The translations under genes were made by a program, and so were the position numbers. Below the pieces are notes generated by a model that had not been told where the DNA came from, searched no databases, and saw nothing but the letters and a program-made list of their open reading frames with translations. Below, piece after piece: positions 8,994-54,386 of a DNA stretch of 64,000 nucleotides. This DNA is from Nitrospirota bacterium. Lineage in GTDB: Bacteria > Nitrospirota > Thermodesulfovibrionia > UBA6902. The stretch spans positions 142 to 64,141 of the forward strand of contig JACRPZ010000005.1 in NCBI GenBank assembly GCA_016222905.1. Direction: 5' to 3'. Numbering within the stretch: position 1 is the stretch's first letter; every line of letters begins with the position of its first letter.

Positions 8994-10127
8994 ATGGCCA
9001 TCTTCTTAGTAAGCTTCATCCTCATATATGGCGGCATTCACCTCTACGCATTCCTTAAGGTAAAAGCCGCGCTTCTGCCCGGCAAAATGGCTCAGCGGCT
9101 CACGGCTTTCTTTCTCATCGCAATGATCTCAGCGCCCTTCTTCGTCCGCCTTTACGAAAAGAACGGACTTGAAACCTTCGCCTATCTGACAGCACACGTG
9201 GGATTCATCTGGATGGGCATCATATTCCTCTTCTTCATATATGGAGTGCTTATAGATTTCTGGCGCTTTTTAATCTTCACAGCCGGAATTGTGCTAAAAA
9301 AGAATTTCCTCGCACTACGGCCTTCCCCAAAGTTCGCATTCTTCATACCTCTGATCATCTCTATGGCGGTCACGTCTTACGGTTATTTTGAGGCGATGGA
9401 TGTTAAGACGGAGCGCCTGACGATCAGTTCAGCAAAGATACCTCCTGAGGCGGGCAGGATAAAGATAGTGCAGATATCCGATGTCCATCTCGGGCACATC
9501 GTCCGGGAGGCAAGGCTAAAAAATATACTCGATAAAGTTAAGACGGAAAAACCCGACATCTTCATATCAACCGGCGATTTGGTTGACGGCCAGCGGAGCG
9601 AGCTTAACGCTCTCTCAAACCTCTTCAGGGAGATAAATCCGCGATATGGAAAGTTCGCCATAACAGGCAATCATGAATATTACGCGGGACTGGAACAGTC
9701 GCTTGAGTTTACCGAAAAAGCCGGATTCAGGATCTTGAGGGGCGAGGGGCTTACGGTAGGCATTATTAATATAGCAGGTGTTGATGATCAGGCTGGCATC
9801 AGTTCTGGCACTACAAAGAGCGTCAACGAAAAAGAGATGCTCTCAAGACTGCCTAAAGACAAATTCACACTCTTTCTCAAACATAGACCGCTTATTGTTG
9901 AGGATTTAAACGGCCTCTTTGACCTACAGTTGTCAGGTCATGCCCATAAAGGACAGATATTCCCGTTCAACTTTTTCGTCGGCAGGTTCTTTCCTTTTAT
10001 AAGCGGATATCATAAGATAACCGACAAATCTTCAATTTACATAAGCAGGGGGTCAGGCACATGGGGGCCTCCGATACGATTCCTCTCCCAGCCTGAAGTG
10101 ACGGTTATAGAACTGGTAAATAAATAG
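8994..10127 (+). CDS. Membrane-anchored calcineurin-like metallophosphoesterase (paralog 1)
   Basis: Four N-terminal TM helices, then metallophosphoesterase motifs DVHLG, GDLVD, GNHEYY, GHAHKGQ. Confidence 0.8.
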   Translation: MAIFLVSFILIYGGIHLYAFLKVKAALLPGKMAQRLTAFFLIAMISAPFFVRLYEKNGLETFAYLTAHVGFIWMGIIFLFFIYGVLIDFWRFLIFTAGIVLKKNFLALRPSPKFAFFIPLIISMAVTSYGYFEAMDVKTERLTISSAKIPPEAGRIKIVQISDVHLGHIVREARLKNILDKVKTEKPDIFISTGDLVDGQRSELNALSNLFREINPRYGKFAITGNHEYYAGLEQSLEFTEKAGFRILRGEGLTVGIINIAGVDDQAGISSGTTKSVNEKEMLSRLPKDKFTLFLKHRPLIVEDLNGLFDLQLSGHAHKGQIFPFNFFVGRFFPFISGYHKITDKSSIYISRGSGTWGPPIRFLSQPEVTVIELVNK

Positions 10128-10136
10128 CCGATAGTG

Positions 10137-10664
10137 TTAATCGGGCGACAGGTCCGCTTCGAGATTCAGATTGATCCGAACATCTTTGCCCACCATTATT
10201 CCATCTTCCATGAGTTGGTTCCATGTCATGCCGAAGTCTTCGCGATTCAGGTTTGTTGACGCGTTAAATCCTATACAGGTCTCGCCAAAAGGACTTTTTA
10301 TGGGACCGAGGTATTCAAAGTCTAAAGTTATTTGACGGGTAATCCCGTGAATGCTTAAATCGCCTGAAACCTTACCATTACTGAAACCCGTCTTTTCCGA
10401 ATTTTTGCTTTTGAAGATGATCTCAGGAAATTTATCGCTGTGAAAAAAATCTTCGCTTCGGAGGTGCTCATCACGCTTGCTTATTCCTGTAAAGAGACTC
10501 GATACTTCGATCTTTAATTCCGCGGAGAGATTTTTTATATTACCAGTGTCAAATTCAATTGTGCCTGATATCTTATTGAACTGGCCGTGTACATGAGTTA
10601 TCATCATATGCCGGATGGCAAAAGCTGCTACAGAGTGGTCAGGGTCGATTCTCCATTTAGCCAT
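10137..10664 (-). CDS. YceI-family protein
   Basis: WRIDPDHSVAAFAIRHMMITHVHGQF matches the YceI N-terminal signature. Confidence 0.85.
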   Translation of the reverse strand: MAKWRIDPDHSVAAFAIRHMMITHVHGQFNKISGTIEFDTGNIKNLSAELKIEVSSLFTGISKRDEHLRSEDFFHSDKFPEIIFKSKNSEKTGFSNGKVSGDLSIHGITRQITLDFEYLGPIKSPFGETCIGFNASTNLNREDFGMTWNQLMEDGIMVGKDVRINLNLEADLSPD

Positions 10665-10705: not shown

Positions 10706-11764
10706 TCAGGCAGGCCGCCCATCTATTAAATAACATTGTGGGTCTTCCGCAAGATAATCGCTTTGCCCGACTATTTTTGAATAAGCAAAAGCGATGGCTC
10801 TGCAGCCCCTGCAATCCGCCCATCTTTGACAGCTTCCGCATTTCCCCTTATATCTCTTTTTGTCCCGCAGGGCCTGCAAAACTTCGGAAGTGGCCCATAC
10901 CTCTCTTAATGAGTCTCGCCGTATATTGCCTATGGAAATCTCCAACCTTCTGCATGGAAGAAGGGTACCGTCAGAAAGAATGGTGATACCTGATACGCCT
11001 GCCGCGCATCCACCTGAAGGTATGGCGCTGTCATCTCTTTCATATATTTTCGCTATCGATTGTGAAGCAACAGGATCACCCGTGACTATTTCAAGTCCGC
11101 CGGATTCCATGAAAAATATTTTTTTATAAAGCTCTTCCACAGACTCCGTACCCAGCATCTTTTCGGCTATGTCCTTTCCCCTGCCTGCAGGAACGAGTCT
11201 TGAAAAACCGACTCTCTGCACACCAAGGCCAGATGCCAACCGGAGAATGTCCATAAAATGATCCGCGTTTAATTTTGAGAGCGTAACATTCAGTGTCACT
11301 TTCAAACCTGTATCAAGCAGATTTTTAACCCCTCTTACAGAAGCCGCATAACTGCCTTTGCCCCTTATTGTGTCATGCACCTGTTCAGGCCCTTCAATGC
11401 TTACCTGGACGCCTTTTATCCCGGCGGACGCGAGCCGTTCTGCCGCCTCTTTATCAATAAGAGTACCGTTAGTAAGCAGGAACATATCAAATTTATGTTC
11501 AGATATTTCATTGAGAATTTGAAAGAGGTCGCCGCGTAACAAAGGCTCTCCTCCGGTTATGTTGAAGCTTGATGAAAAGTCTATGCCGTAGATCTCTTTC
11601 CATATGTTTATCGTCTCTGATATTTCATCAAGCGCCTCTTTCACTTCAGGGAAAGACATTTCACTTCTTCTGCCATCTGTCTGGTAGCAATGTTTACAGG
11701 AGAGATTGCATCTTTCGGTAAGATGCCACTGTATGAAGAAATCAAAGATATGATTGATAGACAT
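10706..11764 (-). CDS. Radical SAM/SPASM-domain protein (peptide-maturase-like)
   Basis: CNLSCKHC (Cx3Cx2C) radical SAM cluster motif near the N-terminus, and a C-terminal SPASM motif CGSCQRWADCRGC with additional Cys (GGCAAG...PC). Confidence 0.9.
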   Translation of the reverse strand: MSINHIFDFFIQWHLTERCNLSCKHCYQTDGRRSEMSFPEVKEALDEISETINIWKEIYGIDFSSSFNITGGEPLLRGDLFQILNEISEHKFDMFLLTNGTLIDKEAAERLASAGIKGVQVSIEGPEQVHDTIRGKGSYAASVRGVKNLLDTGLKVTLNVTLSKLNADHFMDILRLASGLGVQRVGFSRLVPAGRGKDIAEKMLGTESVEELYKKIFFMESGGLEIVTGDPVASQSIAKIYERDDSAIPSGGCAAGVSGITILSDGTLLPCRRLEISIGNIRRDSLREVWATSEVLQALRDKKRYKGKCGSCQRWADCRGCRAIAFAYSKIVGQSDYLAEDPQCYLIDGRPA

Positions 11765-11798
11765 AATAAAATGTAGAACAGGTCAGGGCATGATTATT

Positions 11799-11863
11799 AA
11801 AAAACAGATATGGCAGAATCCTTTCAGTTTTAATGATAACGCTGTAAGGTTCCGCCATATCTG
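11799..11863 (-). terminator. Intrinsic terminator/attenuator between the small ORF and the rSAM gene
   Basis: On the minus strand, CAGATATGGCGGAA...TTCTGCCATATCTG forms a 14-bp stem with one G-U pair, followed by TTTTTT. Confidence 0.5.
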
Positions 11864-11909
11864 TCTGCCTTAGTTGCTGGACCAGCAACTATTAACTCTT
11901 TCAGCCCTT

Positions 11910-12014
11910 TCACTTGCGGCATACCTTGCCAGGATTCTCCTTGTCTGTCTTCTTCAGACTTTCCCAGAAGGCAGCCTCTTTCTGAAGCGCTTCTTTACTA
12001 AAGGGTTTCTTCAT
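11910..12014 (-). CDS. Small ORF (34 aa, MKKPFSKEALQKEAAFWESLKKTDKENPGKVCRK), candidate precursor peptide
   Basis: Strong Shine-Dalgarno GGAAAGGAGGTGA 6 nt upstream of the ATG. Same strand as, and immediately upstream of, the rSAM/SPASM gene. Not in the supplied ORF track, which omits ORFs under 60 aa. Confidence 0.4.
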   Translation of the reverse strand: MKKPFSKEALQKEAAFWESLKKTDKENPGKVCRK

Positions 12015-12114
12015 CCTGTCCTCACCTCCTTTCCTTGTGACAACTGCCATAATTCAATCATATCAATTACCGTAACAGTAAACAAGGGGTGTATAAGTAG
12101 AAAGAGGCGCGGGG

Positions 12115-12666
12115 TTATTTTATCCTTTTGGAAATCGTTTTAAATTCAGGGGTTCCGGCCTTTTCAAGGAGTTGAAACAAAACTGTCTCAGCGCAGGTTA
12201 TCACAGCTCCGGCATCACGCATCAATTCCATACCTGTCAGATAATCATCCTTCTTTCTTGAGCATATGGCATCGCTCACAAGATGAACGAGATATTTCTC
12301 TTTCAGCAAACTTAAACATGTCTGCAAAACGCAAACATGCGTCTCCATGCCAGTGAGGATGACCTGATTCCTCTTCAGAGAGGCTACATTCTCAAGAAAG
12401 CCGTTGCCTTTACAGCAGTCGAACGTAACCTTCTCAAGCGGTTCATATGAGGGGAGGGCTTCCTTAATTTCATTAATTGTATGCCCAAGACCCTTTGGAT
12501 ACTGTTCTGTAACAATGACAGGGATGTTTAAAAGTTTTGCGGCTTCAATAAGATGAAGGCAGTTATTGACCACCTTCTCTTTTTGTTTCATGACAACAGC
12601 GAGTTTCTCCTGTATGTCCACGATGACGAGAACAGAGTTGTCTTTATCGAGGATGAATTTGTCCAT
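12115..12666 (-). CDS. Isochorismatase-family hydrolase (YcaC-like)
   Basis: VLVIVDIQ...CVLQT segments typical of the isochorismatase fold. Start chosen at the Met preceding the conserved core. Confidence 0.8.
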   Translation of the reverse strand: MDKFILDKDNSVLVIVDIQEKLAVVMKQKEKVVNNCLHLIEAAKLLNIPVIVTEQYPKGLGHTINEIKEALPSYEPLEKVTFDCCKGNGFLENVASLKRNQVILTGMETHVCVLQTCLSLLKEKYLVHLVSDAICSRKKDDYLTGMELMRDAGAVITCAETVLFQLLEKAGTPEFKTISKRIK

Positions 12667-13113
12667 GTGGAAATATAATATCAAATCTATAGCAATTCTG
12701 TTGTATAACACTTATAAGGCCCCTGTATGTCAAGAGACAAATGACACCTAATCAGAAATAAGAAATAAAGAATTCCATTTCCATATTTTTTAAAGACTGC
12801 CAGTCAGTTCTGACTTGATTTCAAAAACGGCGTCAGATTAATATCTGCACCAAACACTTATCGCGGTTCAATAGTCATGAGAAAGAGAACTGTTTTCACA
12901 ATCTTTATCCCTGACGACAGCGGAGGGATCAATCGCCCTTGTTCTCCACGACCTGGAAACAATTTGATACCCTTATGCCGTCCTAATCACAAGTATGGTT
13001 CATCCCGACTGTTCGGGATCGTCCAGTTAATATCAGGCTCGGGTAAGGGGCAGAACCCGTACAATCTCTTATATGTTATGAGGAACCGGATGTCATAATA
13101 CTCTCCTCTTATC

Positions 13114-29184: not shown

Positions 29185-29261
<77 letters not shown>

Positions 29262-29336
29262 TGATAATTGCAGATTTTACAGATTTAATTTATTATATAT
29301 CTGCGCAATTATAAATCCGGGAACTGAATTGAAATA

Positions 29337-29412
29337 GGGGGTGTAGCTCAGCTGGGAGAGCGCCTGGTTTGCAACCAGGAGGTCATCGGTTCGATCCCGT
29401 TCACCTCCACCA
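29337..29412 (+). tRNA. tRNA-Ala (anticodon TGC)
   Basis: GGGGGTGTAGCTCAGCTGGGAGAGC...GGTTTGCAACC...GGTTCGATCCC...CCA. Confidence 0.9.
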
Positions 29413-29471
29413 TAATTTAAATTTGCAATTTTGTTGCATTTAATGTTAAGGTATTTCACTTCGAAAAGATT

Positions 29472-29587
<116 letters not shown>

Positions 29588-29600
29588 TTAATTATTAATA

Positions 29601-32536: not shown

Positions 32537-33718
32537 ATGATCATATTTTTATTTTTTCACGGCGCTTACTGGTTAGCGCATTTATACCTCTTCTTTAAAT
32601 TTAGAAATGCCTTCCCTCTTGACATTGCTGGAAGCGCAGTCCTGAGTTTATTTCTTGTCTTTATGGCGCTTTCTCCCATGTCTGCTTACATACTCATATT
32701 AAGAGCAGAACATACCGGCATCAAGAATAGAACTTATGCAAACGCTGTAATGTTTTCGGGATTTATATGGATGGGGTTGCTCATAATCTTCTTCTTTGTA
32801 TCAATCCCGATTGATCTTTACAATCTTGGCGTACGGCTTGCCGGCTTTGCTCTTCATAATGACATCAGCAAGATTATGATCTCTCAATTATCCGCATTCT
32901 TTATCCCTCTTTCCACTTCAATATGCCTTAATATCTACGGCTATTTTGCTGCAGGCGACTTGCGTGTTGAGCGGCTAACCATAAAGACATCAAAGCTTCC
33001 TGAAGACGTTGACAGGCTCACAATTGCTCAGATATCCGATGTGCACCTCGGCATTATGGTAAGGGAGAAGATGCTTGATAAAATTATTGATAATATTCTC
33101 ACAGAAGAGCCTGATCTGATAGTCTCAACAGGGGACCTAATTGATGGAGGGACAAAACATATCCGGCATTTTGCGGAAAAACTTAAAGGGGTCAACGCAA
33201 GACTGGGCAAATTCGCAGTAATAGGGAATCATGAATTCTATTCAGGCATCAAGAACTCAATACAGTTTCTTGAGGATGCCGGGTTCACAGTATTCAGAGG
33301 CCGAGGCGTTACCGCAGGTGGCCTGATAAATATTGCGGGTATAGATGATGCCGAGGGAAGAAGAAAAAATATCGCTGCTGAATCAGAAAAAGAGATCCTC
33401 TCAAGGATGCCTTCTGGATTATTTACATTGCTCTTAAAACATAAGCCGGATGTAGAGAAAGATGCGCTCGGACTCTTCGATCTTCAGCTATCCGGACATA
33501 CTCACAAAGGACAGATATTCCCCATAAATCTTGCTGTAAGGCTCTTTTTCTATCCCCACAGCAGTTACAAAAAACTTTCAAAAGGTTCGGCAATAAATGT
33601 AAGTGGAGGGGCAGGCACCGCCGGGCCTCCGATACGTCTATTCTCTCCGCCTGAAATAACAATTATTGAACTGGTAAATGATAAAATAAATATCAAAGAA
33701 CATAAGGCGTTTGTTTAA
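32537..33718 (+). CDS. Membrane-anchored calcineurin-like metallophosphoesterase (paralog 2)
   Basis: Same architecture as 8994-10127: N-terminal TM helices plus DVHLG, GDLID, GNHEFY, GHTHKGQ. Confidence 0.8.
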   Translation: MIIFLFFHGAYWLAHLYLFFKFRNAFPLDIAGSAVLSLFLVFMALSPMSAYILILRAEHTGIKNRTYANAVMFSGFIWMGLLIIFFFVSIPIDLYNLGVRLAGFALHNDISKIMISQLSAFFIPLSTSICLNIYGYFAAGDLRVERLTIKTSKLPEDVDRLTIAQISDVHLGIMVREKMLDKIIDNILTEEPDLIVSTGDLIDGGTKHIRHFAEKLKGVNARLGKFAVIGNHEFYSGIKNSIQFLEDAGFTVFRGRGVTAGGLINIAGIDDAEGRRKNIAAESEKEILSRMPSGLFTLLLKHKPDVEKDALGLFDLQLSGHTHKGQIFPINLAVRLFFYPHSSYKKLSKGSAINVSGGAGTAGPPIRLFSPPEITIIELVNDKINIKEHKAFV

Positions 33719-37023: not shown

Positions 37024-39981
37024 ATGAATAACCACGCTTTTCTTCAACGATACTTGGCTGAAAAAATAACCCATCAAAAAATGGCTGGGTCTCTGTCAAG
37101 ACTTTCCTCTGTTCTTGCAAAAGCCTCTATCGAATTAAATCCTTACCAGATTTATGCGGCTCTCTATGCTTTTAATAGTCCTCTTCAGCGGGGAGCAATA
37201 CTTGCTGATGAGGTTGGTCTTGGCAAAACAATTGAAGCAGGCATTATTATTTCACAGCTTTGGTCTGAGGGAAAAAGAAGGATATTGATTATTACACCAG
37301 CATCTTTGAGAAAACAGTGGCAGGATGAGCTTTCAAATAAGTTCGGGCTTAATTCAGAAGTTTATGACGGTCCTTCTTTTACAGAAAAAATTAATAACGG
37401 GGAAAGAATCCCGTTTACCTATGAAGGGGTTTTTATAGTCTCGTATCAATTTGCCTATGCGCGTGCCGGGTTAATTGAAAAACAGCCGTGGAATGCAGTA
37501 TTCATTGATGAAGCACACAGAATGCGTAGAGTATATAGAGGACGGGATGCGTCAAAGATGGCATATGAAATAAGAAGAATTATTTCTGGAAAACCCAAGG
37601 TATTACTAACAGCAACACCTCTGCAAAACAACTTGATGGAGCTTTATGGGATTGCCAGTTTTATTGATGATAAGCTTCTTGGTACACCATATAGTTTTAA
37701 AACACGTTTTGTTGATCCTCTTTCAGAAATTAACGAATCAAACAGTGGAAGACTCAAAGAATTAAGAATCTTAATTAAAGGAGAAGACAGCGAAAGTCAA
37801 ACAAGTATCTCAGGAATCTTAACAAGAACGCTTAGAAAAGACGTGCTTGAATATGTACGCTTTACTGCCCGCAAGTCAATGACATTTGATTTCACGCCTT
37901 CAGATGAAGAAGTTGAGCTTTACGAAAAGGTTTCCTCGTACCTCCAGCGAGATGAAGTTGCAGCGATCAAAACAACACAGAGAAACCTAATGATACTTGT
38001 TTACAGAAAGCTACTTGCAAGTTCTTCCTTTGCGATAGCCGGAACCCTGAAGAAGCTGATTGAAGCATTGGAAAAAGAATTAAGTCTCAGAGCTAAAGAA
38101 GATACTTATCAGGATAGCACAGCATTTACTTCAGAAGAAGTGGAAGATGAAGGGATAGAGGAAGAGCTTGAAGAATCCGAACTCGACATGGCTGAACAAA
38201 TACAAAAAAAAGAAAAGCCGAGAATTAATCGGGAAAAGTTCAGTAATGAAGACATTCAGAAAGAAATAACCGAATTGAAAAGCTACTACGATCTTGCGGT
38301 ATCAATCGAGAAGAACAGCAAGGGCGATGCCCTGATTAGGGCGCTTAAATCAATGTTCAATTTAGCAAGAGAAAAAGGTTGGCCACAGAAGTCTGTTATA
38401 TTTACAGAGTCGAGAAGAACGCAGGAATACATAGCCGGTATCTTAAAAGACAATAATATAACCTATACTTTATTTAACGGCTCGAATGCTTCATCGGATG
38501 CAAGGTTGTCTTATGAGAAGTGGGGGAAGGAGTTCCCTGAGTTTGCGTCGTCCGGTTCTTTCTCAGCAAACATGAGGCAAGCTCTGGTGCATAATTTTGA
38601 AAAGAGTTCGCAGATCTTATTGACAACTGAGGCTGGCGCTGAGGGATTAAATTTGCAATTCTGCAATATAGTTATCAACTACGACTTGCCGTGGAATCCG
38701 CAAAGAGTTGAACAGAGGATAGGAAGATGTCACCGTTACGGGCAAAGATATGAAGTTCTTGTTTCCAATTTTCTTAATACAAGAAATAGGGCTGATAGAC
38801 GCCTTCTTGAGCTTCTTCAAAGTAAGCTGAATCTGTTTGACGGACTATTCGGGTCTTCGGATGAAATTCTCGGCGCTCTCGAATCGGGAATTGATTTTGA
38901 AAGAAGAATACTTGAGATATACCAATCATGCAAAACGCCGGAGGAGATAGATGCAGCTTTTGACACCCTCCAGGAATCCCTGCAGGGCAAGATATCTGAC
39001 AACATATTAAAACTTAGGTCGTATCTCACGGAATTTGATGAGTCCGTTAAAGGTCTTTTTAAAAGAACAAAGTTCGATATGGAGAATGCCTTGTCTGAAT
39101 TAGACAATGATCTTGTAAGATTATGCGATCTGGCCCTTGACCACGGAATAAAGAAGACAGACAATGATGGCGTATACGAAATATCCTGCAATGGCGATAA
39201 GCATCTGATGGCCTTTCGTAATTTAAAAGAAGATGAGATAGGCAAAATTCCACGCGCTCATAGAGAACATCCTGTCTTAAATAAAATAATAAATGAATCC
39301 TTATCTATTGAAACAAACCCGATACCATCAATTGTTTTTGATTACTCCAGCGCCAATAAAAAAATATCGCAATTAGAGTCTTTATTGAACAAAGATGGAT
39401 TCATGTTTCTCTTTAAACTTAAGGTGAATGGAATAGAAACAGAGGATATCCTTGCACCACTTTCATTTATTAAAGAGAAAAAGGAATTTAAGCCTCTTGA
39501 TCTTCCGACAGCAAATCAGGTACTTTCTCTTAATATTTCAAAAGATGCATGTTTTGACGCAATATCAGAGCTTCCATTTTCAAGAGAAGAACTTTTATCA
39601 TACTGGAACAACTGGAAGTCTCAGTCCCTGGAGATTTACCAGAAAAAAAATGAACGGCTCTATGACAGGGAAATAGACCGGATAAACCGTTATTATCAGG
39701 ACTATTCATTAAAGGTTGATGATAAAATTGCTAAACTGGAAAAGGAATTATCCGAGTTCAACAGAAAGAGAGATAATTCAGCAGACCTTGCCGAGCGAAG
39801 AGACCTGCATAAGAAGATTCAGAAACTGGGGCTTGATATTGAAAAGTTGCGGATAGAACAGATAAAGCTTAAGGAGGAGGCCTTTACGAAAAAACAGAAA
39901 GACCTCGAAGAACTTGAGATAAAATTTGAAATTGCAACGGAAGAAAAAATGATAGCCATAACACATTTTAGAATTATATGA
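37024..39981 (+). CDS. SNF2-family helicase/ATPase with an uncharacterised ~400-aa C-terminal extension
   Basis: Motif I DEVGLGKT, DEAH box FIDEAHRMR, TATPLQNNLMELY, helicase-C motifs TEAGAEGLNLQ and QRVEQRIGRCHRYGQ. Confidence 0.9.
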   Translation: MNNHAFLQRYLAEKITHQKMAGSLSRLSSVLAKASIELNPYQIYAALYAFNSPLQRGAILADEVGLGKTIEAGIIISQLWSEGKRRILIITPASLRKQWQDELSNKFGLNSEVYDGPSFTEKINNGERIPFTYEGVFIVSYQFAYARAGLIEKQPWNAVFIDEAHRMRRVYRGRDASKMAYEIRRIISGKPKVLLTATPLQNNLMELYGIASFIDDKLLGTPYSFKTRFVDPLSEINESNSGRLKELRILIKGEDSESQTSISGILTRTLRKDVLEYVRFTARKSMTFDFTPSDEEVELYEKVSSYLQRDEVAAIKTTQRNLMILVYRKLLASSSFAIAGTLKKLIEALEKELSLRAKEDTYQDSTAFTSEEVEDEGIEEELEESELDMAEQIQKKEKPRINREKFSNEDIQKEITELKSYYDLAVSIEKNSKGDALIRALKSMFNLAREKGWPQKSVIFTESRRTQEYIAGILKDNNITYTLFNGSNASSDARLSYEKWGKEFPEFASSGSFSANMRQALVHNFEKSSQILLTTEAGAEGLNLQFCNIVINYDLPWNPQRVEQRIGRCHRYGQRYEVLVSNFLNTRNRADRRLLELLQSKLNLFDGLFGSSDEILGALESGIDFERRILEIYQSCKTPEEIDAAFDTLQESLQGKISDNILKLRSYLTEFDESVKGLFKRTKFDMENALSELDNDLVRLCDLALDHGIKKTDNDGVYEISCNGDKHLMAFRNLKEDEIGKIPRAHREHPVLNKIINESLSIETNPIPSIVFDYSSANKKISQLESLLNKDGFMFLFKLKVNGIETEDILAPLSFIKEKKEFKPLDLPTANQVLSLNISKDACFDAISELPFSREELLSYWNNWKSQSLEIYQKKNERLYDREIDRINRYYQDYSLKVDDKIAKLEKELSEFNRKRDNSADLAERRDLHKKIQKLGLDIEKLRIEQIKLKEEAFTKKQKDLEELEIKFEIATEEKMIAITHFRII

Positions 39982-41015
39982 ACTCAGTAATAGAAAAAAG
40001 GAGAAAACAGGATTTAGGCATATTTTACACAAGGCCTGAAATTGTGGATTTTATCTATGACATACTCCTTGTCTGGAAAGAGAAAGAGGATAAGGATGCC
40101 AAACGATGGGAGTTGCACAAACCCAAGCATTACCCATCAGTTATTGACCCAACTTGCGGTGAGGGGATCTTCTTAAAGAAAGCCATTGAAAGGAAATTCA
40201 CAAAGGCTGATTGGGTTTTTGGGATGGATATAGATGAAGAAGTTGTTAATAGATGGCCAAGTATCAACCTTCTCGAGGCATTCGGTAATGATGAGGCGAA
40301 ACTGAAAGCGCACTTCTTTCATCAAAACGGTTTGCTGCCGATTGAGTGGGAACAACACAAAGGCCTGTATTATGGAAACCTCAAAAAAGAGGATATCAGG
40401 AACGGACAGTTTAATCTTGTAACCGGAAACTTTCCCTATGGCGGAATTGGCGTGGATTTCTCAAATCATCCGACTCCGGAAGGACGGAGGCTATTAGATT
40501 CACTGCGCACTTTTCGGATATTCAATTATAAAAACAAAAAAAGAAATAATGGGAATAATGGAAATAAGCCTGTGAATGGGTTGTTTGATGCCCTTGTTTC
40601 TGAGCCTTCTTCTTCTTATTCAATCGTAAATCCAAAAGAAGCGGAGTCTATGCCGATAGAGGTTTTGTTTATAGAAAGGTTTATTCAGTTATGCAAAGAC
40701 GGAGGATGGATAGCAGTAATAATCCCTGATGGCATATTGGCAAATTCCAATATGCAATATGTGAGAGAGTTTATTGCTGATAACACAAAAGTTGAGGCAA
40801 TAGTTTCCCTTCCACGAGACGCCTTCAAGCACGTGGGCACATCAGCAAAGACAAGCATTCTGTTTCTGAAAAAGAAGAAAATGGAAAATCTTAACTATCC
40901 TGTTTTCCTTGCGTCTCTGAACAAGATGGAAGAAAAAGGACTGAAAATAATATCAGAACAATATGAGGAGTTTTATTATGAGTCAAAACTTAAACACATC
41001 GAAGACAGTTTATGA
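39978..41015 (+). CDS. Gamma-class N6-adenine DNA methyltransferase (HsdM/Eco57I-like)
   Basis: Motif X GIFYTRPEIV, motif I DPTCGEGIFL, motif IV-like GNFPYGG, and the C-terminal GGWIAVIIPDGIL...SLPRDAFK...TSILFLKK region. Its ATG overlaps the SNF2 stop (ATGA). Confidence 0.85.
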   Translation: MNSVIEKRRKQDLGIFYTRPEIVDFIYDILLVWKEKEDKDAKRWELHKPKHYPSVIDPTCGEGIFLKKAIERKFTKADWVFGMDIDEEVVNRWPSINLLEAFGNDEAKLKAHFFHQNGLLPIEWEQHKGLYYGNLKKEDIRNGQFNLVTGNFPYGGIGVDFSNHPTPEGRRLLDSLRTFRIFNYKNKKRNNGNNGNKPVNGLFDALVSEPSSSYSIVNPKEAESMPIEVLFIERFIQLCKDGGWIAVIIPDGILANSNMQYVREFIADNTKVEAIVSLPRDAFKHVGTSAKTSILFLKKKKMENLNYPVFLASLNKMEEKGLKIISEQYEEFYYESKLKHIEDSL

Positions 41016-41796
41016 AAATGATTTTATTATGGTAAGAGTTGATAAGACTCTTAAAGAAATGATGGAGGAGAAACCATCGAGTAGATGGGATCCAGGTTAT
41101 TGGGAGCCAAAATATGATCAAGTACTTTCGCAGATAAGCAAAACTTATAAAATTGACCCCCTTAGAGAATTGCTTTCGATTCCCATTATTGCCCCTGACC
41201 ATGTTCGAGCAAGTAAAGGTGAATATATAGGTAAAAAGTACTCGTGCGAATATAGAACATTAAAGGATTTATTATTTACAGGGTTAAATTATGCAAATAT
41301 TAATTATTGTTCTGATAATGCATTTCAACGCTTGATACGGTCACAGCTTCAAGTTGGTGACATTCTTTTCGCAGGTTCAGGCATCGGTGCCATTGGTCGT
41401 GTTGGGTTCGTTGATAAAGTTTCAAAAAAATCATGTGTTGGAGACTTATTTATTATTCGAGAACCTAAAATCAATAATTATTATTTATATATTTTTCTTT
41501 TATCTCTATTTGGACAGGCTCAAATTGAAAAAATCTATCACGGAATCCAATCAGCAAAAATAAGTACACCAGAAATTGCGGAAATAAAGATAGTATTAAT
41601 CCCAAATAAAGTTCAAAAACACATCGAAATAGAATACAAAAAAATGGCTTCTCATCATGATAAAGCTATGGAAGCCAAGGCTAAAGGCAGTGATACAGGG
41701 TACAAAAAAAACATCGAAATTGCAGAGGCAATGTTGAAGGACTTGATTGCTAAGACTGAGACAGTAATTAGGGGTGAGCAGGAGGATATTATTTAA
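40978..41796 (+). CDS. Restriction-modification specificity (S) subunit-like protein, single target-recognition domain
   Basis: Size and composition of a half-HsdS/BcgIB-like TRD with a coiled-coil C-terminal region. RBS GAGGAG sits 8 nt upstream of ATG 40978. Overlaps the MTase 3' end. Confidence 0.6.
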   Translation: MSQNLNTSKTVYENDFIMVRVDKTLKEMMEEKPSSRWDPGYWEPKYDQVLSQISKTYKIDPLRELLSIPIIAPDHVRASKGEYIGKKYSCEYRTLKDLLFTGLNYANINYCSDNAFQRLIRSQLQVGDILFAGSGIGAIGRVGFVDKVSKKSCVGDLFIIREPKINNYYLYIFLLSLFGQAQIEKIYHGIQSAKISTPEIAEIKIVLIPNKVQKHIEIEYKKMASHHDKAMEAKAKGSDTGYKKNIEIAEAMLKDLIAKTETVIRGEQEDII

Positions 41797-43595
41797 TGCC
41801 GAATCGCTCTGAAGATTCCTATATAGTTCATGACATTATTCCCTTATTATCCAAACTTGGTTATCCGGGTACAGGAGATCATGAAAGAGTCAGAATTAAG
41901 GATGTACCGATATATCGTCCGGGCGGTGGTAAAGCCGGCGCAATGGACATAGTGTATTATCATAATGACGAACCGGTATTGCTTGTTGAAGCAAAGAGAG
42001 AACATAAGACACACGAAACTGCTCTTTCCCAGGCACAGAATTACCTCAAAAACTTCCCGGTAAAATATAAAAAATATGCTGCATCAGGCAGAGCGCCTTT
42101 ATATGTTGCCACCACAGTTGGCAGGGAAATAAAGTTTTACAGAAATCGCTACGAGATTGTTGATGATCAGATAATACAGACTGCCGAACAGGTTGAAATC
42201 TTACCCTTTGATGAATTGCTTACAGAATATGGTCTTACATCTGGATACAAAGCTAAGCCTCTTGATGCCGAATTATTCAGAAGAGATTTCATCCCGGAAC
42301 TGGTATCTGTGTATAACGTTTCAGAAGATGGCAGAATAACGCCGGATGTTATAAAAAAAGTCTCAAGCCATATACTAAACTATCTCGAAAACCGGCACAC
42401 TTATGACACCCGGTCACCCTTTGTTGAGCTTAAAAAAGCTCTTTTCAGGCAGGAGCACATCAAAGACCTTCACAGACGTTTTGATTTAATAAACTCATTA
42501 GGCCCTGATATTGCCGAGCAGTTCAGAAGTTTTATTTTAAGATCATTTCAGGGGAATGAATTTAATCAATATCTTACTGAACAGTGCATCATTGCTTTCA
42601 TGTTTGACCTGATTGGAGAGGTAAAAAGCAAATGGAAGGTTCTTGACCTTGAGTGTGGGAGCGGCGGTTTTCTGTCGGCAGCAGCCAAAAAAAATATTCC
42701 TTTAGAAAATATGCTGGGCGTTGATATTGACAGCCTTCCTTTCACAATCGCTACAACGTATCTTGCATTATATTTTTCTAAAACAGGGAAAGAAATTTCC
42801 CAAATACCTGTAAAAGAGACTAATGGATTATTTTATTTAGGCGATGACTGGGATTTGGTTGTCGGCAATCCTGCAGGAAGTCATCAATACGAAAGAGGCA
42901 ATTTAGAAGATGTTTTAAAAAATCTTGAACGGGATATTAATCAGGACGGCAGAGATGATAAATTTTCTGAATATAATTTTTCTGTTCAGCAGGCTGTAAG
43001 GTCATGTAAGGTTGGCGGGAAACTTTGTCTGTTTCTTCCAGAAGGTTTCTTCTCTAACTCTCAGGATGAATTCTTAAGGAAGTATGTTGCCAAATACTGC
43101 CGAATTCTGGCGATTGTTAGTCTGCCAAGAGGTGTTTTCAAAAAAGGCACTTCAACTAAAACAATCAACACAGGCAGTCAAGGCTCTTCACAGAAAATGT
43201 CAATTCTTTATGCCGAGAAAATCAGGGCCGTCAAAGATGGAGAAGGCATTGAGATTGATAAAATAAAGCTCGAATATCCTGTCTTCTTAGCCAACATATC
43301 CAAGCCCGAATCAACAGCAGGTGAGATAAGCAACTGGCTTGAACCAAGACTTCGCCTTGTATTAGAAGAATGGAGAAGCTGGCAAGATAAAAAGGAATTC
43401 GTGGAGTTAGATGAATCCCTATTGAAGGAAGCGTTTGATACTTCAAAGGCAGCTAAGAAAACAAAAAAATCTAAAAAAGAGGATATGCAAATGGAACTAA
43501 TATTGGACGAACCTATTGCAAGCAAAAAGCCCAAAACCGTCAGCACAGAAATCAGTATAAGCGAGAGCCTAGATAAATTGTTTAAAAAGAGATAG
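41796..43595 (+). CDS. Type IIB (BcgI A-subunit)-like protein: N-terminal PD-(D/E)xK nuclease domain fused to an HsdM-like MTase domain with degenerate catalytic motifs
   Basis: The D...EAK motif (MDIVYY...LLVEAKRE) is nuclease-like. MTase motif I is LDLECGSGGFL and the C-terminal region is GGKLCLFLPEGF...SLPRGVFKKGTSTKT. However, motif IV reads GNPAGS (not NPPY/F) and motif X reads QYLTEQ. Its ATG overlaps the S stop (TAATG). Confidence 0.75.
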   Translation: MPNRSEDSYIVHDIIPLLSKLGYPGTGDHERVRIKDVPIYRPGGGKAGAMDIVYYHNDEPVLLVEAKREHKTHETALSQAQNYLKNFPVKYKKYAASGRAPLYVATTVGREIKFYRNRYEIVDDQIIQTAEQVEILPFDELLTEYGLTSGYKAKPLDAELFRRDFIPELVSVYNVSEDGRITPDVIKKVSSHILNYLENRHTYDTRSPFVELKKALFRQEHIKDLHRRFDLINSLGPDIAEQFRSFILRSFQGNEFNQYLTEQCIIAFMFDLIGEVKSKWKVLDLECGSGGFLSAAAKKNIPLENMLGVDIDSLPFTIATTYLALYFSKTGKEISQIPVKETNGLFYLGDDWDLVVGNPAGSHQYERGNLEDVLKNLERDINQDGRDDKFSEYNFSVQQAVRSCKVGGKLCLFLPEGFFSNSQDEFLRKYVAKYCRILAIVSLPRGVFKKGTSTKTINTGSQGSSQKMSILYAEKIRAVKDGEGIEIDKIKLEYPVFLANISKPESTAGEISNWLEPRLRLVLEEWRSWQDKKEFVELDESLLKEAFDTSKAAKKTKKSKKEDMQMELILDEPIASKKPKTVSTEISISESLDKLFKKR

Positions 43596-43758: not shown

Positions 43759-44298
43759 ATGGAAATCAAAATAAACAAAGGCATATTATCATTGGTTGAA
43801 GGAGATATAACAAAGCAGAGTACGGATGCGATAGTAAATGCCGCGAATAAAAGTCTCCTCGGCGGAGGCGGTGTTGACGGGGCAATCCATAGGGCTGGGG
43901 GGCCCAAGATACTTGAAGAATGTATAAAGATAGGCGGCTGCGAGACTGGCGAGGCGGTAATTACAACAGGCGGGAATCTTAAAGCCAAATACGTTATTCA
44001 TACGGTTGGCCCAATATACAGAGATGGACTTCACAATGAGCCTAAACTACTTGATAATGCTTACCGGAACTGTCTGAAACTCGCATCATCAAAAGGCATA
44101 AAGAGTATCGCGTTCCCTTCAATAAGCACAGGCGCATACAGGTATCCGCTTTCCGATGCCGCAGAGATTGCGCTAAAGACAGCGGTCGAATATCTAAAAG
44201 AGCATACGGATATTGAATTGGTGCGCTTTGTTCTTTTCGGGCAAAAGACCCTTGAGGTTTATGAGAAGGTATACGCCCTTATTTCAACTGATCACTGA
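43759..44298 (+). CDS. Macro-domain protein (O-acetyl-ADP-ribose deacetylase, YmdB-like)
   Basis: VNAANKSLLGGGGVDGAIHRAGG and GNLKAKYVIHTVGP macro-domain signatures. Confidence 0.85.
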   Translation: MEIKINKGILSLVEGDITKQSTDAIVNAANKSLLGGGGVDGAIHRAGGPKILEECIKIGGCETGEAVITTGGNLKAKYVIHTVGPIYRDGLHNEPKLLDNAYRNCLKLASSKGIKSIAFPSISTGAYRYPLSDAAEIALKTAVEYLKEHTDIELVRFVLFGQKTLEVYEKVYALISTDH

Positions 44299-50149: not shown

Positions 50150-51457
50150 TTAAATATGTATATCCCTTTCCCCCGATTCTATCAACTTAAATTTCTCAGC
50201 CAGCCCGTTTGAGCTTTTTGCTATCTCTTCATCAAGCACCTTCTTTAATTTTTTCTTTACTTCGCCTGAAGCGCAGTCTTCAAGATATTCTTTCAGGCTC
50301 AACATCGCATTCTCGTGACAAAAATTTTTAATGCCCTCTTTCTCCGCAAGCTCTCTGAATCTCCCGCCGCTTCTGCCTTCCCTGTAACATGCGGTGCAAA
50401 GACTCGGCACAAGCCCGAGACTGACTATCTTATCTATAACTTCCTCCAAACTCCGCGCATCTCCTATCTCAAATTGTTCCGTATCGCCGTCGTGAAGATA
50501 GCCTGAGGGGCTTGTCTTTGAACCTGCAGATATCTGTGATGCACCGGTTGAAAGCAGTTCGTCTCTCAATTGAGCCGGCTCTCTTGTAGAGACAACAACT
50601 CCGACATACGGAAGCGCAAGCCTGTAGATAGCGACTATCTTTTTCAGATCATTATCAGATACTTTATGCTTCCAATTTATCCATGACCCTTGTGCAGGTT
50701 GAAGCCTCGGCACTGAGAGCGTGTGCGGCCCGAAGCCATATTTATTGATCAATCTGCGGCAGTGTGAGATCAATGCAGCAGCCTCCCACCGCCAATCATA
50801 AAGGCCGAGCAGCACGCCCATTCCCACGTCCTCAAAGCCAGCCTCAATCGCCCGGTCTATGACGCCGAGCCTCCAGGCGTAATCCGATTTAGCGCCGATT
50901 GGGTGCATGTGCCTGTATGTGGGGATGTGATAGGTCTCCTGAAAACACTGATACACGCCGATGCCCGCGCTTTTCAGCTTCCTGAAATCTTCCACGCTCA
51001 TCGGCGCAGTGTTAGCGTGAAGAATACGGATGTCCGTATTTTTGTAAATGGCATTTGCAACCTGCCCGATATAATCAATGCCTGCAAGTTTTGCGTGCTC
51101 GCTCGTTACGAGCAGAAGTCTCTTGTAGCCTCTGCCCGCAAGCAGTTTCGCTTCCTGAACCGCCTCGTCCACGCTAAGGGTTTTCCTTACTGCGTCTTTA
51201 TTGCCCTTTCTGAATCCGCAGTAGAGGCAGTCATTGGAGCACTCATTAGAAAGATAAAGCGGGGCAAAGAGAACTATACGTTTTCTGTAAACTTTCTCTT
51301 TGACCTTTCGGGCTGTGTCAAAGACCTCATCCCATAAAGCCTTATCCTCAAGTGCGAGAAGGCTTGACACCTCAGTCATATCAAGCACCCGAAGCTCAAG
51401 AGACTTGGCAAGTATCTCGCGGATGAAAGAAGGGTCAGTGTTTATATGTTTATTCAT
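50150..51457 (-). CDS. thiH: Radical SAM tyrosine lyase of the ThiH/HydG family (ThiH context, HydG-like C-terminal CX2CX22C motif)
   Basis: The radical SAM cluster motif reads CSNDCLYC (CxxxCxxC). The gene is the first in the TPP-riboswitch thiSGEC operon. The C-terminus reads CTAC-x22-C. Confidence 0.8.
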   Translation of the reverse strand: MNKHINTDPSFIREILAKSLELRVLDMTEVSSLLALEDKALWDEVFDTARKVKEKVYRKRIVLFAPLYLSNECSNDCLYCGFRKGNKDAVRKTLSVDEAVQEAKLLAGRGYKRLLLVTSEHAKLAGIDYIGQVANAIYKNTDIRILHANTAPMSVEDFRKLKSAGIGVYQCFQETYHIPTYRHMHPIGAKSDYAWRLGVIDRAIEAGFEDVGMGVLLGLYDWRWEAAALISHCRRLINKYGFGPHTLSVPRLQPAQGSWINWKHKVSDNDLKKIVAIYRLALPYVGVVVSTREPAQLRDELLSTGASQISAGSKTSPSGYLHDGDTEQFEIGDARSLEEVIDKIVSLGLVPSLCTACYREGRSGGRFRELAEKEGIKNFCHENAMLSLKEYLEDCASGEVKKKLKKVLDEEIAKSSNGLAEKFKLIESGERDIHI

Positions 51458-51550: not shown

Positions 51551-51695
51551 ATAAAAAACCGTATCCCTTGGTATTGAACCTAAAGGAATACGGTGAATGA
51601 TTCTTCATCCCTTTCCTCCGCCGGCATTATCCGGTTCAGGTTCGCGGGGTCTTCCCGAAACATCGGGAACTCTCAGGCTAATGCCTCCCCCAGGG
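51551..51695 (-). ncRNA. TPP (THI-box) riboswitch with terminator-type expression platform
   Basis: Minus strand reads GGGGAGGCATTAGCCTGAGAGTTCCC...GACCCCGCGAACCTGAACCGGATAATGCCGGCGGAGGAAAGGGA (aptamer). A CCGTATTCC...GGATACGG + T-run terminator follows at 51551-51600. A TTGACA-N18-TATACT promoter lies upstream at ~51704-51733. Confidence 0.85.
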
Positions 51696-51884
51696 TATTT
51701 AAAGTATATCTTCTCTCATAGAAAAGTGTCAACGATAAGAGAAAAGTCCCGCTGTTAGACTTTTGGGATAAGCCGTGCTACATTGTATAATTAACAATTT
51801 CATTGATTCCCTGAAGTCCGTGCCTATTTTTACTTCTTAAGGAAGGTCTAAACTGTAAACGCTTTTAGTGATTTCTTTACCTTA

Positions 51885-53069: not shown

Positions 53070-54386
53070 TTAACCGACTTTTTTGATCAAGCTGAATAAC
53101 TTATCTGCCAGCTTGGTATTAATGGTCTTCAGCGTCTTATATTTTTCGAGGGCTGCGCCTTTATCGTTCAGGAATAAATAGACAATGCCGAGATTGTAAT
53201 GCGCTTCAGCGTAATCGGGCCTGTATTTTAAAACCTTTTGAAAGGCCGAGGCTGCTTCGCGGTAGGAAGCTGATTTTTCATAGGCGATTCCGAGGTTGTA
53301 GTGTGCGTCCGCAAAATCAGGTTTAAGCATAACAGCCTGTTTGCCTGCCTCGATCCCCTCTTTGTACATGCCGAGCTTCCCATAGGCAACGCCTAAATTG
53401 TAATACGCATCCGCAAAATCAGGTTCAAGCCTTACAGCCTGCTTCAATACTTCCACAGCCTCTTTATACATGGCGAGTTTTCCATAGGTAATTCCGAGAC
53501 TGAAGTGAGCGTCTGCAAAATCAGCGTTTAATTTTATCGCCTCCCTGTAATCCCTTGCAGCCTCTTTATACTTACCCCTATTTTCATATGCTACGCCTCG
53601 ATAATAGCGGGCATCCGCAAAACCGGGCTTCCGACTTATCGCCTCTGTGAACACATCTATTGCATCTTTATGCGCTCCAACCTCGGAGAGATAATAGCCG
53701 AGATAAAACCAGTACTCTGCTGTATTACGGTAATTTTTTATTATGCTCTCTATTGCGGTAACCGCCCCACTGATCTTCAATTTGTCTCTAATGACATCCG
53801 CAGGCATTGCAAGGATGAGGTTTTCTGTTCTTTTTATGAGAAATGTTGTCATGCCGATAACCTCACCGTTCTTGTTAAATAAGGGGCTGCCGCTGCTTCC
53901 ATGCGAAACCGGAGCAGTAATCTCGACAACCTTTCGTCCTGGAGAGATTATCCTCATCCTCCTGAATGTGCCTTTAGAAATAGTATTCCCGGAATCTTTC
54001 GAGCTGCTTATGATATAAACTTTCTCGCCTGAATTTATCTGCCCGGCATCTCCGAATTTTACGGGATGCAGATCTTTCCCTTTTACCCTGAGTATCACAA
54101 AATCGTTTTCCTTGTCTGCGTACATCACTCCTTCAACATCCAGAACCTTGATACCCGACCTTATCTTTATATCCTTTGCAATACCTATAACATGATAGTT
54201 TGTAATCACCGCGCCATCCGCGCTTGCGATAAATCCTGTCCCTTCGGTAAGCGGCTCGCCTTTTTTGTTATACGCTGTAACAACAACTATTGACTCTTGA
54301 TTCTCCCTGAAAACCGTGTAGTTATCAGCGGAAGAGAGAGAGGGAAACAATAATAATGCGATCAGCAGCAGGAATTTTTTCACCAT
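53070..54386 (-). CDS. Trypsin-like serine protease fused to TPR repeats (secreted)
   Basis: Signal peptide. S1 protease motifs around His (TNYHVIG) and the active Ser (GSSGSPLF). Six or more TPR repeats (AxxYxxLGxxY pattern). Confidence 0.8.
   Translation of the reverse strand: MVKKFLLLIALLLFPSLSSADNYTVFRENQESIVVVTAYNKKGEPLTEGTGFIASADGAVITNYHVIGIAKDIKIRSGIKVLDVEGVMYADKENDFVILRVKGKDLHPVKFGDAGQINSGEKVYIISSSKDSGNTISKGTFRRMRIISPGRKVVEITAPVSHGSSGSPLFNKNGEVIGMTTFLIKRTENLILAMPADVIRDKLKISGAVTAIESIIKNYRNTAEYWFYLGYYLSEVGAHKDAIDVFTEAISRKPGFADARYYRGVAYENRGKYKEAARDYREAIKLNADFADAHFSLGITYGKLAMYKEAVEVLKQAVRLEPDFADAYYNLGVAYGKLGMYKEGIEAGKQAVMLKPDFADAHYNLGIAYEKSASYREAASAFQKVLKYRPDYAEAHYNLGIVYLFLNDKGAALEKYKTLKTINTKLADKLFSLIKKVG

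Follow-up and report, generated by a model that had tools for sequence, protein, structure and literature searches.

A small gene paired with a radical SAM/SPASM enzyme gene

The stretch of DNA considered here (the window) comprises 64,000 nt from a Nitrospirota bacterium of the Thermodesulfovibrionia (GenBank assembly GCA_016222905.1, contig JACRPZ010000005.1, positions 142 to 64,141), and all coordinates are positions within it. Its minus strand carries a two-gene cassette in which a small open reading frame (ORF) is followed by two hairpins and then by the gene for a radical S-adenosylmethionine (SAM) enzyme with a SPASM domain (Table 1). An earlier reading made from the DNA letters alone (the sequence-only reading) had seen here a candidate locus for a ribosomally made, post-translationally modified peptide (RiPP), with a 34-aa precursor ending in GKVCRK. 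This RiPP-type idea is partly supported by our analysis: the small ORF is a real and conserved gene, but the TGA at which it appears to stop is probably not its end. The peptide is most likely read through two UGA codons as selenocysteine (Sec; U), to finish as ...VCRK-U-KG-U-KS, with the first hairpin as the putative selenocysteine insertion sequence (SECIS).

Table 1. Features of the peptide-enzyme cassette and its immediate flanks, in the order in which they are read.
Feature	Position in window	Strand	Remarks
Isochorismatase-family gene	12711..12115	-	Upstream flank of the peptide ORF
Shine-Dalgarno site GGAAAGGAGGTGA	12034..12022	-	Read directly; 7 nt before the peptide ATG at 12014
Small ORF MKKPFSKEALQKEAAFWESLKKTDKENPGKVCRK	12014..11913	-	34 sense codons; last sense codon 11915..11913
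Overlapping reading frame MPQVKGLKELIVAGPATK...	11922..11830	-	AUG made up of the base before the Cys codon and the TG of the Cys codon
Putative Sec tail TGA AAG GGC TGA AAG AGT TAA (U-K-G-U-K-S-stop)	11912..11892	-	UGA1 11912..11910; UGA2 11903..11901; TAA 11894..11892
SECIS-like hairpin UAGUUGCUG-GUC-CAGCAACUA	11891..11871	-	9 bp; loop 11882..11880
65-nt hairpin (11866..11802) followed by U6 (T6)	11866..11799	-	Intrinsic-terminator-like; putative function
Radical SAM/SPASM enzyme gene	11764..10706	-	352 aa
YceI-family protein gene	10664..10137	-	Pfam YceI, E 2e-48; no signal peptide

The mechanical ORF list begins the peptide at an upstream ATG (12050), giving 46 aa; we place the start at 12014 because this start is conserved and has a Shine-Dalgarno site before it. 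The strong ribosome-binding site reported by the sequence-only reading is indeed present, and a perfect GGAGGT at a constant distance from the ATG is found in nearly all of the 57 related peptide loci described below. The enzyme gene, as had also been noticed, has no Shine-Dalgarno site, which is true of the window and of nearly all Nitrospirota-type relatives. Together the strong peptide signal and the weak enzyme signal suggest a high ratio of peptide to enzyme, which is what one would expect if the one is the substrate of the other. From the peptide ORF stop to the enzyme start we measured 145 nt, instead of the 100 nt given previously. A promoter consensus scan returned sites no more frequent than in shuffled sequence.

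The short ORF had been expected to be conserved beside orthologous enzyme genes, and this is what is seen. We assembled 60 species-level loci with a full-length or nearly full-length enzyme homolog (one genome per species; L005-L062 together with the window's own lineage), from Nitrospirota, Syntrophales/Syntrophaceae, Geobacteraceae and Syntrophorhabdales bins. In 57 of the 60, spread over two phyla, the enzyme gene is preceded on the same strand, at a distance of 27-440 nt, by a homologous ORF of 30-36 codons, which occurs as 53 distinct sequences. These peptides share the pattern E-[AK]-x-[FYL]-W ... C-x-x, in which the Glu and the Cys are invariant, the Cys is always third from the TGA, and the Trp is present in 56 of 57, the exception (L053, with Leu) being a second copy, or paralog, in one bin. 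No Lys position is invariant in the first 34 residues.

The small ORF is under purifying selection and evolves as coding sequence. Its pooled ratio of non-synonymous to synonymous change (pN/pS) is 0.35 and 0.42 in two length classes, and the window peptide differs from that of L004 by nine synonymous and two non-synonymous changes. In-frame stops number zero in the peptide frame, versus 199 and 69 in the other two frames, and the conserved Cys is encoded by TGC in 47 loci and by TGT in 10. Peptide and enzyme divergence are correlated (Spearman rho 0.73). No other conserved neighbour of the enzyme gene was found in the 60 loci, the peptide ORF being the sole one. The gene pair is thus very probably a real functional unit.

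The cassette also appears to be as minimal as the sequence-only reading had supposed, with no recognition-element protein, protease or exporter: no PqqD-like gene occurs among the recurrent neighbour clusters, and no conserved leader protease or exporter among the neighbours of the loci. A RiPP recognition element is not universal in radical SAM/SPASM maturase systems.

The peptide itself is poorly annotated. Only two matching clusters were found among 5.8 billion proteins, both unnamed or 'hypothetical', and a search of 1.84 billion representatives gave 24 further called small peptides with the same motifs (E-x-x-[FYL]-W ... C-x-K). Neither NCBIfam nor Pfam gave a match for the peptide, whether in its 34-aa form, in its 46-aa form or lengthened by the tail with C or X in place of U, and full-text literature searches found no description of the family. 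Among the hits of the representative search were large, apparently eukaryotic repeat proteins (P0123, P0126, P0127, P0129 and P0149) with many copies of DWExLxxLxxENPGKIC, which resembles FWESLKKTDKENPGKVC of the peptide, including the Trp-to-Cys spacing; as relatives they were set aside, the resemblance being judged chance or convergent. A Trp-centred three-residue cyclophane is disfavoured, since the residues at +2 of Trp/Phe are not conserved and L053 has Leu for Trp.

In-frame UGA codons and a candidate SECIS hairpin

The apparent stop of the small ORF is TGA in 57 of 57 loci, compared with a background of 43% TGA in long ORFs of the same loci, and a second in-frame TGA follows 9 nt after the first in 56. 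In an alignment of the 47 nt downstream of the peptide ORF (A1), there is no variation at T1 G2 A3 A4 A5, T10 and A12 A13 A14, and the conservation of G11 is 90% or more. The resulting pattern, TGA-AAR-NNN-TGA-AAR, is in frame with the peptide and would be read as U-K-x-U-K-x(-x). Behind each TGA-AA stands an A or a G, a difference that is silent for Lys in the peptide frame. In 48 loci the tail comprises 6-7 codons before a TAA or TAG, and in six of these the last tail codon is a third TGA with TAG directly behind it. In eight remaining loci a third TGA (in L059 a fourth) closes the frame at the foot of the first hairpin, and the frame is always closed within ~4 nt of the 5' foot of this hairpin. 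Two extra metagenome contigs reached from called peptides (L066 and L067) have the same tail and hairpin.

The in-frame tail is visible in one database entry, the 49-aa P0138, which ends …VCHK-W-KS-W-KS-W-SCRSATRH and in which three TGAs were called as Trp, the contig evidently having been translated with a TGA=Trp code.

The distance from the first TGA to the small hairpin is 18-21 nt in 54 loci and up to 26 nt in the remaining three; as a control, a comparable hairpin was found in 132 of 1140 random 40-nt windows. It occurs as 34 distinct sequences, none of which breaks any of the six core pairs, and it covaries. Pair 1 is G-C (22), A-U (10) or G.U (2), pair 6 is C-G (21), U-A (12) or A-U (1), and pairs 2, 5 and 7 each show single double changes that are compensatory. 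The G.U wobbles can pair on the sense strand only. Conservation of the hairpin is not at the level of protein in the window's lineage, since loop insertions and deletions shift the frame of the 'VAGPAT' that follows the peptide while the stem is kept, and a conserved 'VAGPAT' protein was rejected there for this reason.

Bacterial SECIS elements have been modelled as a loop of 3-9 nt with G in its two initial positions on a stem of 4-16 bp, with a UGA-to-loop distance of 16-37 nt and a minimum free energy of at most -7.5 kcal/mol (PMC13188914). The loops of the small hairpin are GUC, GUU, GGUC(A/G), AGUUC, GGU, GGA or UGGAU, on stems of 6-9 bp, and lie 25-33 nt from UGA1 and 16-24 nt from UGA2. 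Loop, stem and distance are within the modelled ranges in 57 of 57 loci if eight 2-nt 'GT' loops are read as a 6-bp stem with a GGTC loop. The bare hairpin has a computed energy of -5.4 to -12.9 kcal/mol, and 35 of the 57 loci lie within all four ranges as computed. The minimal SECIS of E. coli is GGTTGCAGGTCTGCACC, which is functional untranslated for Sec near the C-terminus (PMC3834832). The hairpin of L037, GTTGCAGGTCTGCAACC, has 16 of the 17 bases of this element with one inserted base, and in several other variants the main difference from it is a single compensated pair. The motif also seems specific to this position: both strands of ~0.8 Mb of window and loci gave no further occurrence, and hence no independent SECIS example beside other genes. 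On these comparisons the small hairpin probably behaves as a SECIS element, and it is likely that the two UGAs encode Sec. The peptide would then probably be ~40 aa long and end in C-R-K-U-K-G-U-K-S.

Between the small ORF and the enzyme gene the sequence-only reading had placed an intrinsic terminator. There is indeed a long hairpin with a U6 run, but it is the second of two hairpins, the first being the SECIS-like one. The 148-nt intergenic stretch folds at -54.9 kcal/mol (z = -6.8 versus dinucleotide shuffles). The long hairpin is absent from the results of a consensus terminator scan, which allows loops of up to 8 nt; the apical loop is probably too large for it. Nitrospirota-type spacers (113-440 nt) contain this hairpin with the conserved arms GGCAGAyATGGC...GCCATrTCTGCC, usually followed by a T run, and the enzyme has its own start, MSINxxFDFFIQWH. 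In the Syntrophales-type loci, which lack the long hairpin, the genes overlap: the enzyme frame opens inside the end of the peptide gene, either at an AUG over the Cys codon (the base before it plus its TG) or at an NUG overlapping UGA1, and passes through the tail and the small hairpin as MLQLKEVKRQIVAGPATKTFDFFIQWH...; in L066 the two genes overlap via GTGA. Such an overlap implies translational coupling. Across the 57 loci, the base before the Cys codon is A in 52, compared with 18% in the background, which creates the out-of-frame AUG. In the window's lineage the ORF that starts there is variable in length and end (in the window it stops inside the terminator loop), and translational coupling or anti-termination is a possible role.

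The enzyme and the competing explanations

The 352-aa protein has the Pfam domains Radical_SAM (PF04055, E 6e-26) and SPASM (PF13186, E 5e-11), as the sequence-only reading had recognised from the CNLSCKHC motif and a SPASM Cys cluster. Ten Cys are conserved in the family: C19, C23 and C26 of the radical SAM motif, which are invariant, and the seven of the SPASM region (C253-x12-G-x4-C271, C309xxC312x5C318xxC321 and C344), each kept by at least 95% of family members. With its cluster motif starting as early as residue 19, the enzyme has no N-terminal recognition domain.

That the enzyme might group with a non-peptide family had been named as a finding that would speak against a peptide maturase. 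It reaches the cutoff of no such family, and in NCBIfam no cutoff at all is reached by the window enzyme or by the Syntrophales-type and Geobacteraceae-type members. For the window enzyme the scores were NirJ2 199.7 bits and AhbD 199.3 bits (cutoff 500 each; relatives 161-181 bits for AhbD), NirJ 158.9 and NirJ1 152.5 bits (AhbD/NirJ equivalog cutoffs are 500-650 bits), the ACGX-system enzyme 165.8 bits (cutoff 400), MftC (TIGR03962) 154 bits (cutoff 265, the highest score-to-cutoff ratio), the GeoRSP-system enzyme 151.9 bits (cutoff 400), SbtM (TIGR04082) 129.9 bits (cutoff 350; relatives 128.9-142.6 bits), StsB 108 bits (cutoff 625) and PapB 96 bits (cutoff 340).

Among proteins of solved structure, the best sequence match is SkfB (E 4.7e-19), followed by PqqE, MoaA, CteB (5wgg) and anSME (E 2e-8). 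An AlphaFold2 model (pLDDT 87.5, pTM 0.88) has as its nearest solved folds SuiB, anSME, SkfB, ChlB and PqqE, with query-normalised TM-scores of 0.64-0.76. Most of these top matches are SPASM/Twitch enzymes that modify peptides or proteins, ChlB being a cyclophane synthase (PMC12912966). Judged by its sequence and predicted fold, the protein is a radical SAM/SPASM enzyme outside the classified families, and its substrate is most likely the peptide encoded next to it.

Relatives of the enzyme number in the thousands. The best 120 clusters are 59-100% identical to it, and their source-named members come from Nitrospirota or Thermodesulfovibrionales metagenome bins. An exact look-up of the window enzyme gave no record. 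The closest public relatives (P0001, P0002, P0003 and P0005) are calls of 312-317 aa that start at Met36 and so drop the CxxxCxxC motif; the lack of a ribosome-binding site at the true start is presumably the reason.

The nearest known precedent, and the only radical-SAM-modified Sec peptide system encountered in the literature searched, is that of SbtM, a radical SAM/SPASM enzyme that modifies a Sec-containing peptide; its discoverer described the system as the first such case, confined to Geobacter and its relatives (PMC9204691). As is proposed for the window, the gene of this SPASM enzyme adjoins a short peptide gene that has in-frame Sec codon(s) and is closely followed by a SECIS; its hosts are anaerobic Desulfobacterota, and at least two Sec are expected in its peptide (PMC9204691). 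However, the window enzyme aligns to positions 199-503 of the 516 in the SbtM profile and lacks the N-terminal region of SbtM, the SbtM Sec lies in GGUG (PMC9204691) whereas the window family would have K/S-U-K, the peptide families are unrelated, and the hosts of the window family extend to Nitrospirota. UxxU and 'UXX-star' selenoproteins with Sec near the C-terminus have also been listed (PMC13188914). UxxU selenoproteins share with the proposed window peptide two Sec three positions apart served by one SECIS. The tail is also like those of UXX-star, KCU-star and SaoC, which have Sec two to three residues before the true stop and a SECIS after it; SaoC has a C-terminal Sec, UGA-UAG, and then a 7-bp hairpin with a GGU loop. 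Unlike the window peptide, these C-terminal Sec/UxxU selenoproteins are larger or have no radical SAM linkage.

Similarities with other maturases are more partial. The thioether-forming SPASM/Twitch maturases SkfB, CteB/Tte1186 and PapB act on Cys-containing precursor peptides and, in the case of SkfB and CteB, match in sequence, but the window enzyme scores far below the cutoffs and has no N-terminal recognition domain, and its peptide has no conserved acceptor residue. For the thioether-forming PapB and Tte1186, Sec-substituted peptides showed direct contact of the substrate with the auxiliary cluster. anSME is of similar size (~370 aa), acts on a Cys side chain and matches in fold (TM 0.67-0.71), and it uses no recognition-element protein; it differs in that the window has no sulfatase nearby, a weak sequence match and a dedicated small peptide partner. 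With MftC/MftA and PqqE/PqqA the cassette shares a small, highly conserved peptide and, as proposed, a SPASM modification at a fixed distance from the C-terminus, but not an MftB/PqqD chaperone, a Val-Tyr or Glu/Tyr motif, or downstream pathway genes. The products of the mycofactocin and PQQ systems are intracellular and are not antibiotics.

Several observations weigh against a selenopeptide and its maturase. At the second TGA position L039 has TAA, and 21 loci have a small hairpin weaker than the -7.5 kcal/mol limit unless the lower stem is counted. The tail is only 6-7 codons long, so homology beyond UGA1 is thin. Rfam gave nothing relevant for the region at the gathering score, and under relaxed settings (500 nt at E up to 1; 91 nt at E up to 10) a chance miRNA match only. 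Sec/Cys homolog pairs are the usual proof of a selenoprotein family, and no Cys-for-Sec homolog occurs in the 57 loci, the 24 called peptides or the two extra contigs, all fairly close relatives. No selA, selB, selD or tRNA-Sec was found in the 64-kb window, where the larger ORFs were scanned, and Sec use by the source organism is therefore assumed from its lineage only, which has been reported as Sec-using (PMC13188914). Four enzyme homologs of ~60-66% identity (L010, L014, L020 and L065) have no peptide gene, UGA tail or hairpin in the flanking DNA covered, so the pairing of peptide and enzyme is very strong but not absolute. Finally, the best profile scores of the enzyme, though far below cutoff, are with heme-pathway enzymes.

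The lack of Cys homologs, and of Sec machinery in the window, is what would be expected if the product were a plain 34-aa Cys peptide, as in the sequence-only reading, with the first UGA as its stop and the second as a back-up, the hairpin stabilising the mRNA or serving as a processing site, and the Cys, Trp or Lys being modified. The conserved Glu, Trp and Cys all lie in the 34-codon part, with the Cys invariably at the third position before the UGA; the first TGA is where gene callers place the end of the ORF; and hairpins after precursor genes are common. We nevertheless regard this explanation as unlikely, because a simple stop should vary among TGA, TAA and TAG, and the uniform use of TGA departs from the background. 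It also leaves unexplained the invariant TGA-AAR-NNN-TGA-AAR with a TAA/TAG at the hairpin foot, as well as the SECIS-type G[G/U] loop, its SECIS distance and the near identity to the E. coli element.

The two genes could also be related in ways other than as substrate and maturase. A small (seleno)protein might work alongside the enzyme as its partner, or act independently in redox chemistry or metal binding, with a tail that delivers electrons or selenium or binds metal. CxxUxxU resembles a metal-binding motif, UxxU metal-binding selenoproteins are on record (PMC13188914), the lack of a conserved protease or exporter and the housekeeping surroundings suit an intracellular role, and a cytosolic YceI-type binding protein recurs beside the cassette (see below). 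This possibility is nonetheless quite improbable: the strong-peptide, weak-enzyme signals and the tight pairing with a SPASM enzyme look like a substrate-enzyme pair, for which such a design is typical, the nearest solved folds are mostly peptide modifiers, and we know of no radical SAM enzyme with a 40-aa peptide as its redox partner. Very improbable is the proposal that the enzyme belongs to a cofactor pathway, like AhbD or NirJ, and that the short ORF is a regulatory upstream ORF. It draws on the NirJ2 and AhbD scores, on the name 'AdoMet-dependent heme synthase' that JGI gives to some homologs, and on heme genes that lie 3-4 kb away in one related locus. However, these scores are far under the 500-bit cutoffs and close to those of a dozen peptide-maturase families, no ahb or nir genes occur among the annotated recurrent neighbour clusters, and a regulatory ORF would not keep its amino-acid sequence and its Cys/UGA tail across two phyla. 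The naming of some homologs as 'heme synthase' is not supported.

Genomic surroundings and a possible pathway

The sequence-only reading was right that YceI and isochorismatase genes flank the cassette, but its description of the flanks omitted TetR and an RND efflux operon that also lie 1.3-8 kb away. In the wider set of loci the neighbours are lineage-specific and mostly housekeeping, including G6PD, 6-phosphogluconate dehydrogenase, ribose-5-phosphate isomerase, EngA and a UbiA-family prenyltransferase. The YceI gene adjoins the cassette on the same strand in 10 loci (Nitrospirota and Syntrophaceae); that its product is an accessory, binding the peptide product, is speculative. The RND efflux operon, the isochorismatase and a metallophosphoesterase were rejected as parts of the system, as they are not conserved with the gene pair; nor is the TetR gene. 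The case for a major facilitator superfamily transporter, encoded on the opposite strand in 12 loci with the side differing between the two phyla, is too weak. The metallophosphoesterase has two paralogs in the window (8994..10127 and 32537..33718), which are membrane-anchored and YaeI/LpxG-like, below cutoff; the former lies beside the cassette on the opposite strand in the window, L001 and L003, though most loci do not have it there. As for the loci that have the enzyme without the peptide, L010 and L065 have Leu for Trp in the FDFFIQWH motif at the enzyme N-terminus, and the gene directly upstream is a Phage_holin_4_2-family membrane gene in L065 and a hydrophobic ORF in L014.

Elsewhere in the window, tRNA-Ile(GAT), tRNA-Ala(TGC) and 5S rRNA lie together at 29185..29588; these are the spacer tRNAs of an rRNA operon beside 5S without the large rRNAs, and an Rfam scan found no 16S or 23S in the window. 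A likely defence island (37024..43595) opens with an SNF2-like helicase resembling DISARM DrmD (613 bits against a cutoff of 950), followed by a DNA methyltransferase and specificity-subunit-like genes with weak matches to methylation-associated defence systems. A macro-domain protein, ADP-ribose-binding or hydrolase, is encoded at 43759..44298. The radical SAM gene at 50150..51457 scores above the NCBIfam HydG cutoff (419 vs 312 bits), but a thiamine pyrophosphate (TPP) riboswitch lies directly upstream (51596..51701) and thiC and thiE are near, so that it may encode a ThiH-type thiamine enzyme and the HydG name may be misleading. A trypsin-like protease region with tetratricopeptide (TPR) repeats at 53070..54386 has a sub-threshold match to MamA (144 vs 200 bits), which hints at a possible kinship of the organism with magnetotactic Nitrospirota.

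Taken as a whole, a two-gene selenopeptide pathway of the following kind seems to us moderately likely. The strongly translated small gene would give a basic peptide of ~40 residues, the N-terminal KEAAFWxxLKK of which may form an amphipathic recognition helix that is bound by the enzyme. Its tail, C-x-x-U-K-x-U-K-x, would contain two Sec inserted at the in-frame UGAs in a SelB-dependent manner, directed by the E. coli-like SECIS hairpin at the true stop codon. The weakly translated enzyme would bind the peptide directly, without a separate recognition-element protein, and would act on the Cys/Sec tail by radical chemistry, during which an auxiliary Fe-S cluster would hold the chalcogen. The leading candidate reactions are a thio- or selenoether cross-link and an SbtM- or anSME-like oxidation of the Cys/Sec side chain, both of which fit the seven-Cys SPASM motif and the auxiliary-cluster contact seen with PapB and Tte1186; the thioether or Lys-Trp link named by the sequence-only reading is one of several possible chemistries. 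In the window's lineage the terminator after the SECIS would keep peptide mRNA above enzyme mRNA, and in the Syntrophales lineage the overlap of the enzyme gene with the end of the peptide gene would couple their translation.

A SPASM enzyme beside a short precursor is a known arrangement, and one selenopeptide precedent exists. The present system differs from every curated family tested in its enzyme clade, its peptide, its Sec motif, the absence of a recognition element, the overlap or terminator between its genes, and its host range, which reaches well past Geobacter and its relatives. It could, tentatively, be a second natural class of ribosomal selenopeptide with a much wider range of hosts, in which a core two-gene cassette encodes a peptide of ~40 residues with CxxUxxU and a recognition-element-free SPASM enzyme; with the same reserve, its carriers could include many subsurface anaerobes (Thermodesulfovibrionia-type Nitrospirota, Syntrophales and some Geobacteraceae). 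A second, unrelated family would mean that selenopeptide maturation is not a one-off. If correct, this would also add a selenoprotein family that gene callers systematically truncate or miss, and would make the handling of Sec by SPASM enzymes open to study in a compact system of two genes, one that should be directly testable in E. coli because its hairpin is almost the E. coli SECIS. It would further correct 'heme synthase'-type automatic labels on hundreds of metagenomic proteins. Without an exporter or protease, and in housekeeping surroundings, the product may, speculatively, stay inside the cell, and rather than an antibiotic it may be a cofactor based on selenium, or a peptide that handles metals or redox chemistry.

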